Translations under genes and position numbers: made by a program
Notes under the pieces: model-generated
What the model was told of the DNA's origin: nothing
The model's database searches: none
The model's input: only the letters and a program-made list of their open reading frames with translations
Shown here: positions 48,213 through 51,611 of the stretch, in pieces
How the letters are laid out: the number at the start of each line of letters is the position of its first letter
How positions within the stretch are numbered: the first letter of the stretch is position 1
Assembly (NCBI GenBank): GCA_937893145.1
Contig: CALBJW010000011.1
Location: 682 to 64,681 of the forward strand
Direction: 5' to 3'
Source: an uncultured Prevotellaceae bacterium
GTDB lineage: Bacteria; Bacteroidota; Bacteroidia; Bacteroidales; Bacteroidaceae
DNA: 64,000 bases

Positions 48213-48788
48213 TTATTGTAGAGTCTTTGTTATTTCAGATTCGATTGTTTGTTTTACTTTAGCGTTGAGTTCCTGGGACTCACCGATGAATTGGCGTTGA
48301 GGAATGTTGATGTTAAGATTCTGCTTTTTAGTAAGAGCCATATTACGCCAGAAAGAGGCAGCAGAATTTTCGTCTTTGGCTGCTTCTTTGCCTCCAGACT
48401 TGTAGAACATAGCCCAAGAGAAGCCTCGCATCTTTGGGGTCACTCTGGGATGAGTGGTACCGCCTTGGTTATGGATGGGGGCATAGATGACTGAGTTTGT
48501 GATGGTGACATTGTAGTCGCCAGGAATGTACTGTATGGAGGAAAAGAGGTGGTTACGCGATGAAAGGAGTGGACCGTATTGTGATGCTGCAGCCGAACTC
48601 GGCTGTAGTTGACGGCGAGTTTTTTTCCATTGATGAAGTCCACCATTAACGAAGCCACTTTGACGGAAATTGTCTTGGAAGTGGTCTTTAGCCATGCGCC
48701 CAACTATGATTGGTAATTTGCGTCTGGCAAGGTCTTGGAGGGCTTTTTGCTTGGATTTTATGTGGTTGATGAAAGAATTTGGGTCCAT
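48213..48788 (-). CDS. Virion morphogenesis protein (Mu G / HK97 gp10-like)
   Basis: MDPNSFINHIKSKQKAL...GRMAKDHFQDNFRQSGFVNGGLHQWKK...VIYAPIHNQGG. I place the start at the internal Met (the track extends to 48860). Confidence 0.6.
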   Translation of the reverse strand: MDPNSFINHIKSKQKALQDLARRKLPIIVGRMAKDHFQDNFRQSGFVNGGLHQWKKTRRQLQPSSAAASQYGPLLSSRNHLFSSIQYIPGDYNVTITNSVIYAPIHNQGGTTHPRVTPKMRGFSWAMFYKSGGKEAAKDENSAASFWRNMALTKKQNLNINIPQRQFIGESQELNAKVKQTIESEITKTLQ

Positions 48789-48900
48789 TGTTTGGTTGGG
48801 AATTAAAAAGTTCGTACATTTGCAGTTAGAAAAAAGATGATGGAGGTAACACGTGCCCAATGGGCTTAGGACCCGGGTTAACGCATTCCACCATCTTTTT

Positions 48901-50241
48901 TTATTTATGATAGCCTGTTATAATGTCATCAGGCTTCTTTTTTTCTATGGTGTATAATACTTCAGATCCAAATAACTTATGCACTTTAACATTTGCCCAA
49001 TATATATCATTACCTATTTTTAGTGAATAATATGTGAAGTATTCTGCTTCTGGATGTTTCTTTCTGTCTGGGTTCTTTGGGTCGAACTTTGGACTTGAAG
49101 AATCGTATGGACGGTTTTCTGCCCACCCTTCATATTTCCATCCTTTTATCTTACTCAAATCAAAGGTTGTAAGCCATTTCATGAGGTTGGCATCTTCACG
49201 ACCATGTTCGTAAACATCTTGAAGGGAACGGCGAAGAACAATAAGTTTTCCAGTGCTAAATTCTGCCCCTGATATTTCTTTTCCATCATACTGGTCAATC
49301 TGCTTCTTAACCTTTTTTAAGCGTGCTGCTGCATTCTTATCAGCTCTGTTCATCCCAGGAATGCAACCATCTATAAACTGACAGTTGTAGCAGTGTTTCT
49401 TTTGTGCCGTGAACGGCAGCCAACGGGATAAGCCGTTGGAATGGGAGCTACTGGCATGGAAAGGGCATGAGGAACAGTCGTCGGGGAAGTAGGGATGATC
49501 CTGAGAAAAGACTTGGGGAGAGCCTGCTTTGGTTTTGAGACCTTGATGAGAGTCGGAACCAGGGGCGGTTCCTCCTTCAACCTTGCCGTCAGGGATTGGA
49601 GTGACAGGGTCGGTGGTGGAGGAGAGGGAGCACTTGCAGTTCCAACGATCGCCAGGGCGGTGGTCGTTCCAGAAGGAATCATCAACAGGACGGACTGTGT
49701 TCCAAAAGACTTGGTGGTCAGCTCCTGGATGGGCAGATGTGGAAGGCATCCATTTGAGATTAGGGAGAATGTCTTTCTCTGCTTGGAACTGTTGCCAGTC
49801 AGCAGCCTGATGAGCACGGATGATTGCCGTGTCATATTCTGTCTGAAGCCACGAACCTACTTGATGGGATGCTATTGGTGCAACATCCTCAGACCACTGT
49901 TTGAATGACTTTAGATTGCCATTAGAATCAAGGAGCTGAGCTGCCATATCACGCTGGAGGCGGTGAACCTTGAATGCAGCAAAGACCTCGTTGGAATGAT
50001 GGAGAGCATTGCGGAAGGCATGGTCTGGGTCATAGGCTGATTGCGAAATGCCTTTGTCTGTGGCTTGGGTTATGATGCGAGCAGTTTCTTGGAAAAGACC
50101 AGGATCGAGTTCCGTGAGAGGGTCAAGGTCAGAAGAGACATAGATGGCACGGAGTGCATCGGCGAGGACTGAGGAATCAAAGCTGAACCCTTCTCCAATA
50201 GCACGAGGAACTTGTATGCCATAAAGGTCATTCATTACCAT
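48901..50241 (-). CDS. MuF/SPP1-gp7-type head morphogenesis protein with Cys-rich linker and ~150-aa low-GC C-terminal cargo domain
   Basis: The MuF core has ...AHQAADWQQF...WMPSTSAHPGADHQVFWNTVRPVDDSFWNDHRPGDRWNCKCS. It is followed by DDCSSCPFH...HCYNCQFIDGC and an AT-rich terminal module ...LIVLRRSLQDVYEHGRED...YFTYYSLKIGNDIYWANVKVHKLFGSEVLYTI. Confidence 0.75.
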   Translation of the reverse strand: MVMNDLYGIQVPRAIGEGFSFDSSVLADALRAIYVSSDLDPLTELDPGLFQETARIITQATDKGISQSAYDPDHAFRNALHHSNEVFAAFKVHRLQRDMAAQLLDSNGNLKSFKQWSEDVAPIASHQVGSWLQTEYDTAIIRAHQAADWQQFQAEKDILPNLKWMPSTSAHPGADHQVFWNTVRPVDDSFWNDHRPGDRWNCKCSLSSTTDPVTPIPDGKVEGGTAPGSDSHQGLKTKAGSPQVFSQDHPYFPDDCSSCPFHASSSHSNGLSRWLPFTAQKKHCYNCQFIDGCIPGMNRADKNAAARLKKVKKQIDQYDGKEISGAEFSTGKLIVLRRSLQDVYEHGREDANLMKWLTTFDLSKIKGWKYEGWAENRPYDSSSPKFDPKNPDRKKHPEAEYFTYYSLKIGNDIYWANVKVHKLFGSEVLYTIEKKKPDDIITGYHK

Positions 50242-51611
50242 TCTAAAGCTGCCCCGTTGGTAGGGGCTGGGACGAAAAAACCTCGTAGCCAGTTTTTGAG
50301 AGACTTCTTCTGTGGTTGATTAGGACTCACCACCTGTTTCTTTTTAGTATCATTTTCATCGTCCACATCTTCCTCTTCAATTATAACTTCCTGTTGATGA
50401 TGGTTTGGTGGCTGCTGATTGGACTGTTGCAACTGCTGTGACTTCATTTTGTCATAGTCCTTAGGCTTCTCAACCCCAAATTCCTCATACAAATAATCAT
50501 CATCAACAGGAAGGTTGAAGTTTTGCTTGAGCTGAGTAAGCAAGGACATTTTTGTATTAGGGTCAACATCCTTCTGTTCTGGATAGCAGAACTCACCACC
50601 AGCCACCTTGATACCAAGAGACTCAAAGATGTCTGCCATGTCATAATTTAGAACATCTAAGATGAAACGCTGATCTGCAAGTGTCACTTTGTCTTCTACC
50701 TTCTTGTGTACTGTTCCAAGTGCCTGAGTTCCGTTCTCATTAGACTCTGTTGTGAGAGTGTTGCCGAGAATGAGTTTAGAAAGTTCGTTGTTGCATCGCT
50801 CACAAAGACGTTCGTACACATCTGCAGAACCTGTCTTGTTGCCAGCCTCTACAAGTTTGAGTTCCGTGTCCTTGCCATGAACAAAGACAGCGAGGGCTCC
50901 AGCATTAGAGGAGTCTTCGAGAGCACGACGGCGTGAGTCGTCATCGTCGGTGTCGTAGGTGTATTCCTGAATAGGCATACCGAAAACCTCAGAGAACTGT
51001 GCCCAGTCTGCTGTTGTGTTGCGCTTATAGATAACCCAAGGTGCAGCTTTGGCGAGAAGACCAAGTTCGCGAGGAGTACCGACGAAAAGAAGGTCTGGGT
51101 ACTCATCCCATGAAGTGCCTGTGATGTCAGTCTGCTGACGGAGAATGATACGCTTGATAGGGTCAGCGTGTTTGCGAGGAACGAGGTCATAGTTAGCCCA
51201 TTCCCCATCCTTGTAGAACTGAAGGAGGGAGAAACCCCAGAACTTGGCATCAAGGATGTCAGAAATCAGACGGTTGAACCAAGGAGAACGTATTTGCTCA
51301 TTGACAGTTTCGTCTGGTTTGCCATTGCGTCGAAATTCAATATCAGAGCAAAGAATGGCGTTTTTACGCTTCTCTATGACACATGTGAGGTGAGTGTCAA
51401 GGAGAATGTCTGAATAGAGGTCATAGAGCTTGTATCGGCGTGAGAAATCAACATTCTCAGCAGACTGGATGGCAGCCATGAAGTCGGAGGTGTCAATGCC
51501 AAATCTTTTAGGCTGGGAAAGGATTATTGTGTTTGGACGCGATTGACCAGGTATTGGAATGTTACCGCCTGATGTGATGCGTCCTTTTGGGAGTTTGGTC
51601 TTTTTACTCAT
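50235..51611 (-). CDS. Portal protein (Mu gp29/DUF935-like)
   Basis: 458 aa with an acidic C-terminus. It lies between the TerL/DUF1320-like genes and MuF. The assignment is mostly positional. Confidence 0.65.
   Translation of the reverse strand: MSKKTKLPKGRITSGGNIPIPGQSRPNTIILSQPKRFGIDTSDFMAAIQSAENVDFSRRYKLYDLYSDILLDTHLTCVIEKRKNAILCSDIEFRRNGKPDETVNEQIRSPWFNRLISDILDAKFWGFSLLQFYKDGEWANYDLVPRKHADPIKRIILRQQTDITGTSWDEYPDLLFVGTPRELGLLAKAAPWVIYKRNTTADWAQFSEVFGMPIQEYTYDTDDDDSRRRALEDSSNAGALAVFVHGKDTELKLVEAGNKTGSADVYERLCERCNNELSKLILGNTLTTESNENGTQALGTVHKKVEDKVTLADQRFILDVLNYDMADIFESLGIKVAGGEFCYPEQKDVDPNTKMSLLTQLKQNFNLPVDDDYLYEEFGVEKPKDYDKMKSQQLQQSNQQPPNHHQQEVIIEEEDVDDENDTKKKQVVSPNQPQKKSLKNWLRGFFVPAPTNGAALEW

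Follow-up and report, generated by a model that had tools for sequence, protein, structure and literature searches.

The 64,000-nt stretch of uncultured Prevotellaceae DNA analyzed here (the window, whose positions are used throughout) carries, in a Mu-like Bacteroidales prophage, the gene for a minor head protein of the MuF (Mu gp30) type, and the C-terminal part of this gene is a recombination cassette swapped between phages. Residue numbers below are those of the 446-aa MuF protein. By profile comparison and predicted fold, the terminal module encoded by the cassette is a divergent member of the LPD3 superfamily, and at the level of sequence comparison it is neither a detectable PBECR nuclease nor a known toxin domain. 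We think it probable that the gene joins a conserved MuF scaffold to an exchangeable LPD3-like effector cargo, which would be delivered early in infection, has no protein antidote and is linked to a hairpin at its 3' end.

The exchange was seen by DNA comparison with two prophage contigs, L001 and L002, which encode two of the close protein relatives P0003-P0006. L002 matches the window at 98.2% over positions 56235-49360 and at 97.5% over 48825-46183, with no similarity between these blocks, and L001 has the same breakpoints. The left junction falls right behind the codons for C293-I294, the end of the second CxxC knuckle of the protein, and the right junction lies about 37 nt upstream of the ATG of the Mu G-like gene that follows. 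The exchanged unit is therefore 534 bp long (Table 1). In P0003-P0006 the N-terminal 213 residues are 99% identical and the linker about 75%, and BLASTP found no similarity to the window C-terminus in any of these proteins.

When C-terminal tails were clustered, the 120 best protein hits fell into at least 10 cassette types, and 78 complete orthologues from species-representative genomes (Prevotella, Bacteroides, Phocaeicola, Parabacteroides, Muribaculaceae and others) into at least 14. The named types include Gln_amidase, a glutamine-deamidase toxin domain present in 16 genomes, a CdiA_C-like type, and LPD3. The cassette type of the window occurs in 4 of the 78 genomes; with canonical LPD3 and the L001/L002 type it makes up three remotely related LPD3-superfamily subtypes, found together in 28 of the 78. 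LPD3-superfamily domains are the commonest cargos on this Bacteroidales Mu-like scaffold, and they come without protein antidotes. A sequence-only reading of the window had proposed module swapping and had suggested comparing MuF C-termini among related prophages. Both the unrelated DNA placed exactly at the cassette in 98%-identical prophages and the number of tail types bear the proposal out, and the cassette survey contradicts the opposite expectation of one C-terminus with one composition in all close relatives.

Base composition agrees with an exchange. Residues 311-446 are encoded at a GC content of 0.365 and a third-position GC content (GC3) of 0.30, compared with 0.505 and 0.47 for residues 1-215 and with a GC3 of 0.38-0.60 for 13 other prophage genes. 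The AT-richness of the module DNA, which the sequence-only reading had noticed, is thus confirmed, and because third-position GC also drops it is not merely due to a protein rich in Lys, Asn and Tyr. The segment stands only at the 10th percentile of GC across the whole window, and the module DNA is foreign to its gene rather than extreme for the genome.

The module has no direct family match in Pfam, NCBIfam, PHROGs or PDB sequences, the last of these searched both with a single sequence and with a profile, and tblastn found it encoded in none of 50,697 GenBank phage records. Its assignment to the LPD3 superfamily is made because profile-profile comparison (hhalign, with a module profile of 98 sequences) aligns it with LPD3 over its whole length: the probability was 95.4% (E 1.9e-8, 99 columns) against all LPD3 sequences, 87.8% (E 3.3e-6) when the LPD3 sequences were an independent set drawn from other genomes of the order, and 95.2% against the cassette type of the 98%-identical phages. 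Unrelated cassettes, used as a control, scored at most 0.7% against the same profile. Two members of the module family gave faint Pfam LPD3 matches, 3 of 29 distant relatives matched Pfam LPD3 at E about 6e-5, which is under the cut-off, and the relative P0185 has E 2.8e-8 to the module and E 7.7e-5 to Pfam LPD3.

The predicted fold points the same way. An AlphaFold model of the isolated module (residues 303-446, with 70 homologues as alignment) reached a pLDDT of 96 and consists of a beta-hairpin, three short helices, four antiparallel strands and a long loop at residues 376-398. When the model was compared by Foldseek with the predicted viral structures of BFVD, the top matches (probability 0.99-1.0) were large phage polyvalent proteins and MuF-type minor capsid proteins, and a match named 'Large polyvalent protein-associated domain 3' had TM 0.54/0.41 and an rmsd of 4.6. 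Foldseek against PDB gave nothing significant for either the full-length or the domain-only model (best E 0.058, probability at most 0.44); the weak, non-significant matches were enriched in RelE, YoeB, HigB/HigB2 and a CdiA-CT complex.

The family is small, and it is tied to MuF proteins. A phmmer search over 1.84 billion representative proteins returned only 94 clusters. Full-length matches of about 370-470 aa have the module at the extreme C-terminus, and all those scanned with Pfam are MuF proteins; many other matches are short fragments, and a solo module was seen in only nine short proteins, which are themselves mostly fragments. The three longest matches are two portal-MuF fusions (P0193 and P0216, 803 and 843 aa) and a protein with an intein insertion (P0199, 795 aa), the latter having Hint and intein-splicing domains inserted behind its MuF domain.

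Within the module, conservation of R337, H346, K395, H396, E427, Y404/405 and Y430 stays at 90% or more down to 25% identity, and the closer family also conserves D342, N417, K419, H421, T431 and E433. H346 is invariant and closes the helix 337-346, and the last strand contains T431, itself conserved at 90% or more. The conserved polar residues, above all the Arg/His/Lys/Glu/Thr set, suggest that the module works as an enzyme or binds a specific ligand and is more than a passive structural tail.

The sequence-only reading had likened the module to the PBECR nuclease class. PBECR domains are BECR-fold RNases (Iyer et al., PMC5512222, section 19), and phage Mu gp30 ends in an inactive PBECR domain, MuF-C (PMC5512222). 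The module might accordingly be a PBECR-type, metal-independent endoRNase, the active counterpart of the inactive Mu gp30 domain. Its position is equivalent to that of MuF-C in Mu gp30 (PMC5512222), a histidine ending the first helix and a threonine in the last strand are the configuration described for PBECR families, and the beta-alpha-alpha-beta4 topology is accompanied by the weak Foldseek matches to RelE, YoeB, HigB and CdiA-CT. LPD3 profiles also align collinearly, if weakly, with PBECR2 (15%, E 0.0018) and PBECR3 (3.5%), which at best hints at a very remote kinship. However, the protein matched none of Pfam PBECR1-5 and MuF_C (PF18809/10/12/13/14, PF18819) at E up to 1. Profile sets of MuF_C and PBECR1-4 were collected from about 200 genomes of the same order, among which PBECR5 had no example, and the module aligned with all of them at probabilities of at most 0.3%, against 88-95% for LPD3. 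None of the PDB fold matches was significant, and LPD3 was classed apart from PBECR by Iyer et al. 2017 (PMC5512222). PBECR membership is therefore rejected at the sequence level, the fold comparison with BFVD leads to LPD3 and polyvalent proteins, and we regard a PBECR-type endoRNase as unlikely. A likeness of working principle is possible, because invariant His346 ends the first helix and Thr431 sits in the last strand, while membership in the class is unsupported.

Elsewhere, LPD3 domains adjoin or alternate with PBECR3 or MuF_C domains, which suggests a functional link between these domain types. At G100:C508:563-1746 (L125/L138), LPD3 and PBECR3 are adjacent small separate open reading frames (ORFs), and at G027:C4:65184-68156 (L102, L108, L141, L147) a 3158-aa polyvalent protein shows an LPD3-MuF_C-LPD3-MuF_C alternation. 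The genome of the window itself has a PBECR3 domain (E 7.6e-12) on contig C125:1934-2263 (L128), inside a 1791-aa open frame that is a separate large protein of the polyvalent type.

A different explanation is that the protein is a MuF polymorphic toxin of the classical kind, comparable to Bxa or Apk2, which would act against competing bacteria and from which the lysogen would be shielded by a cognate immunity factor. The architecture of MuF plus a variable C-terminus, and the exchange of cassettes, match this explanation; sister cassettes on the same scaffold, Gln_amidase and CdiA_C, are recognized toxin domains, and MuF toxins have been documented in Bacteroidales (PMC11699363). Against it, the databases searched above assign the window's own module to no toxin family. 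Moreover, a small ORF directly follows 89% of MuF toxin genes (PMC5576092) and every Bacteroidales MuF toxin example (PMC11699363), whereas no such ORF travels with the cassette here. Between the MuF stop codon (48901-48903) and the G-like gene there are about 110 nt of non-coding DNA with no ORF, in agreement with the earlier remark that no immunity gene follows, and the examined relatives carrying the window's module type have no cassette-linked ORF. Across cassette types, the G-like gene usually starts 20-300 nt behind the MuF gene. Because there is no antidote ORF, an effector at work inside the invaded cell, as in the logic of 'polyvalent proteins', fits better than 'polymorphic toxin plus immunity', and we hold a classical polymorphic toxin to be improbable.

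The one candidate immunity gene that came up was rejected. It encodes a predicted membrane protein of 75-85 aa and separates the hairpin from the G-like gene in some loci (L004 4333-4560; L098 2876-3115; L099 2826-3083), though it is absent from the window. The same ORF, with the same leader, also follows cassettes of other types and is therefore a backbone gene of the phage rather than a companion of the cassette, which is a further point against a toxin with its immunity gene. In L031-type loci, those of the glutamine-deamidase cassette in 16 genomes, the gap is about 207 nt long and has minus-strand ORFs of 45-82 aa, and the antisense promoter and the A-run described below are missing, so that the downstream organization of this cassette differs.

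What does accompany the module is a hairpin of about 72 nt that overlaps the MuF stop codon. It is made up of an A-run, a covarying outer stem, a 36-nt conserved core (ATGCGTTAACCCGGGTCCTAAGCCCATTGGGCACGT on the minus strand) and a T-run, with a minimum free energy of -30.7 kcal/mol (z -4.3) and compensatory changes at 7 outer-stem pairs. The core averages 94% identity between loci whose neighboring coding DNA (330 nt) is 68.5% identical. The hairpin stands behind every examined close relative of the module, 11-21 nt past the stop codon, and was not found behind other cassette types; an Rfam search of it returned no family. It occurs once in the genome, which rules out a repeated genomic element. 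Folding energies are ambiguous as to the strand, the sense strand being more stable in 7 of 10 loci. We also considered the apical loop of the antisense strand as a mimic of a tRNA anticodon loop and dropped the idea, the loop sequence being different between loci.

Motifs of the established Bacteroides -33/-7 promoter lie on the strand opposite to MuF and point into the hairpin, behind which the plus strand has a U7 run. The plus strand thus combines a host-type promoter, a short body and the intrinsic terminator motifs of a convergent small RNA gene. Because the opposite-strand promoter reads into the hairpin, the simplest reading suggests a candidate convergent plus-strand RNA of about 75 nt, roughly at 48829-48903, with a cassette-specific body. 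Among 77 related loci, 58 have an antisense TAnnTTTG box 45-116 nt from the MuF stop codon (57 of the 61 outside the glutamine-deamidase type), and only 3 have any such box on the sense strand; an antisense T-run of at least 5 abuts the MuF stop codon in 30 of the 77. The sequence from the promoter to the MuF stop codon is specific to each cassette type. One other type (L064 4283-4356, minus strand; also L035, L039 and L061) has a tRNA-like antisense element just past the MuF stop codon, with the T-arm signature GGATTCGAACC, and ARAGORN called the L064 element a tRNA of undetermined type.

It is tempting to go further and to propose that each cassette brings its own convergent small RNA gene, ending at the MuF stop codon, as an antidote or regulator in place of a protein antidote, so that a virion-delivered effector would be met by RNA-based immunity. 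Under this proposal the predicted hairpin RNA of about 75 nt would be the partner of the module in lysogens, acting either as an antisense RNA (type I-like) or by binding the protein (type III-like). We give this proposal a rather slim chance. Precedents for the arrangement are the type I toxin-antitoxin loci of Bacillus subtilis prophages (bsrG/SR4 and txpA/RatA), in which convergent, 3'-overlapping antisense RNAs are made. The MuF locus would have in common with them a small RNA gene with a host-type promoter, a 3' overlap with a possible toxin gene and a shared bidirectional terminator hairpin. In contrast to these loci, the RNA is here only predicted, its partner is a domain of a 446-aa structural protein and not a small membrane peptide, and the hairpin core is conserved far beyond the needs of simple antisense pairing.

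We suggest the following course of events for the effector cargo. The MuF domain, together with a flexible linker and a small Cys4 metal knuckle, forms a scaffold that would place a few MuF copies at the portal inside the capsid, and the protein would leave with the DNA; the cargo comprises residues 295-446. Incorporation into the capsid through the MuF domain and delivery with the DNA are inferred by analogy to SPP1 gp7 and other MuF proteins, whose capsid targeting and delivery are established or have been proposed (PMC5576092, PMC5512222, PMC11699363). The junctions coincide precisely with the zinc-knuckle codons and the intergenic promoter block, which explains cassette shuffling as recombination of the 534-bp unit between two anchors, the zinc-knuckle sequence and the conserved intergenic block downstream. 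In the newly infected cell the cargo would be an early-acting effector. Its target would probably be nucleic acid, and it would work as an RNA-directed enzyme or binder by means of a surface of helix and beta-sheet formed by R337, H346, K395, H396, K419, E427 and T431. The hairpin probably has two roles, terminating the MuF message and forming the body of the convergent small RNA.

Several points weigh against this proposal. The window protein has no match to Pfam LPD3 (PF18798, cut-off 27 bits), and we know of no biochemical function for LPD3. The chemistry of the module may differ from that of other LPD3 domains, because the conserved Lys395-His396 sit in an insertion of about 23 residues (about 376-398) that canonical LPD3 lacks. 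RNA-directed activity is read only from conservation, from a loosely RelE/BECR-like alpha/beta topology and from Foldseek matches that are not significant. Finally, the hairpin could be a mere terminator, possibly a bidirectional one.

On a further view, the module would serve the structure or assembly of the head, for instance as a tail that binds the portal, DNA or scaffold and has no part as an effector, and its AT-richness and variability would reflect relaxed constraint. We regard this as very doubtful: SPP1 gp7-type MuF proteins do bind portal and DNA without any toxin domain (PMC5576092), and the missing immunity gene and the lack of a known LPD3 function would suit such a role, but the polar residues of the module are under strong constraint, and a fitted structural contact is hard to reconcile with phages that are 98% identical in their portal, MuF scaffold and G genes and yet carry non-homologous or remotely related domains here, while other backbones place enzyme-type toxin domains at the same position.

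The gene and its translation were as first described, the peptides quoted in the sequence-only reading were found in it, and the canonical MuF domain said to end in RWNCKCS (residues 199-205) was recovered: Pfam Phage_Mu_F (PF04233) covers residues 114-206 with E 1.4e-7 and 32.7 bits, above the cut-off of 29.6. PF04233 is also matched by all 70 relatives carrying the same C-module (alignment A1), and C202 and C204 are invariant in all 70. The Gly/Ser/Pro-rich linker that follows is rich in indels in this alignment. Beyond it comes the Cys cluster, the second half of which is the last conserved block ahead of the cassette junction, and which had been read as a zinc ribbon. Of the 70 relatives, 51 have all four CxxC cysteines and 19 lack all of them, a partial set occurring in no relative, and this all-or-none presence supports a metal site, a putative zinc knuckle; the CxxC...CxxC...C pattern was seen in 78 of 119 relatives of any cassette type. 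The AlphaFold pLDDT is low, 46-59, over residues 260-300, and the Pfam matches of the protein include no zinc-ribbon family.

The neighborhood is that of a head-morphogenesis module. The portal gene directly upstream overlaps the MuF start by 7 nt, and downstream of MuF come the Mu G-like gene and then, by Pfam, a tail-terminator gene. The listed ORF of the G-like gene extends to 48860 (TTG), and comparison of its N-terminus with relatives, together with the gene calls in L001 and L002, makes the ATG at 48788 its likely start. Genes for a terminase, a ClpP-type head protease, an amidase, a tape-measure protein, DUF3164 and AAA proteins surround the locus, as is typical of a transposable Mu-like phage. 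The MuF gene is present in a single copy in the genome (3.86 Mb in 222 contigs). A 39,344-bp viral contig of IMG/VR (L085/L090, IMGVR_UViG_3300001598_000098) has a module that is 99% identical and an identical hairpin, which means that a viral contig of what is essentially this phage has been recovered.

Table 1. Features of the MuF locus, in window coordinates.
Feature	Positions	Strand	Basis
Exchanged cassette, 534 bp: codons 295-446, stop codon and 3' hairpin	48826..49359	-	DNA comparison with L001 and L002
Folded C-terminal module, residues 311-446, divergent LPD3-superfamily alpha+beta domain by profile and predicted fold	48904..49311	-	AlphaFold, hhalign, BFVD
Cassette-linked hairpin, about 72 nt, overlapping the MuF stop codon	48830..48902		Folding, covariation, conservation
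Bacteroides-type promoter motifs: -33 TTTG (48791-48794), 20-nt spacer, -7 TACATTTG (48815-48822)	48791..48822	+	Sequence motifs
MuF (Mu gp30 / SPP1 gp7-like) minor head protein gene, 446 aa	48901..50241	-	ORF list, translation, Pfam PF04233
N-terminal MuF domain, residues 1-206, conserved part of the scaffold	49624..50241	-	Pfam; 99% identity in P0003-P0006
Gly/Ser/Pro-rich flexible linker, about residues 207-250	49492..49623	-	Sequence; partly low pLDDT
Cys cluster, C256-x2-C259 ... C284-x2-C287 ... C293, putative zinc knuckle/ribbon	49363..49476	-	Sequence, co-occurrence
Mu-type portal protein gene, directly upstream of MuF	50235..51611	-	Pfam Portal_Mu, E 1.1e-79
Mu G-like virion morphogenesis gene, directly downstream of MuF	48213..48788	-	Pfam Phage_tail_S

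MuF proteins with variable effector tails are already known, also in Bacteroidales, and it is the module family of the window that is undescribed. The nearest known systems are the MuF polymorphic toxins (Jamet et al. 2017, PMC5576092), among them Apk2 and the Bxa/BAH/Bsi system of a Bacteroides stercoris prophage (PMC11699363). As in the window, their MuF domain is N-terminal and encoded in the head module beside the portal gene, the C-terminal domain is shuffled by recombination, the host order (Bacteroidales) is the same, and the sister cassettes of the window locus include glutamine deamidase and CdiA_C-like toxin domains. The differences are that the cargo of the window has no recognized toxin domain, that no small immunity ORF is present, that the protein is short (446 aa), and that the cassette has a conserved non-coding hairpin with a convergent promoter instead. 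Phage Mu gp30 offers a second comparison, since it too is encoded by a transposable Mu-like phage with the gene order portal-F-G and has a small alpha+beta domain C-terminal to MuF; unlike it, the module has no detectable similarity to the MuF_C profile (0.3%), and neither a Cys4 knuckle nor cassette exchange has been described for Mu. LPD3 itself (PF18798; Iyer et al. 2017, PMC5512222), a domain of polyvalent proteins of phages and conjugative elements, is homologous to the module over the whole domain (hhalign 88-95%), and the two share the fold match to LPD3-bearing viral proteins and a location in proteins of the virion module. In contrast to LPD3, the module falls under Pfam detection, has the insertion with its Lys-His pair, and is a single cargo on a MuF protein rather than part of a giant multidomain protein.

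MuF-borne effectors are an emerging class of proteins that are thought to be carried in the capsids of gut phages. To our knowledge, only an ADP-ribosyltransferase (Bxa) and a (p)ppApp-synthetase (Apk2) have been characterized among MuF cargos, and we are aware of no earlier case in which a domain of the LPD3 type was found in so simple a two-part context. The locus provides LPD3 with that context, with a confident model and with a short list of candidate catalytic residues. The pairing of an LPD3-type cargo with a conserved candidate convergent RNA unit, in place of a protein antidote, is a variant of such systems, and a conserved RNA element linked to the cassette could account for how such cargos are tolerated or regulated.

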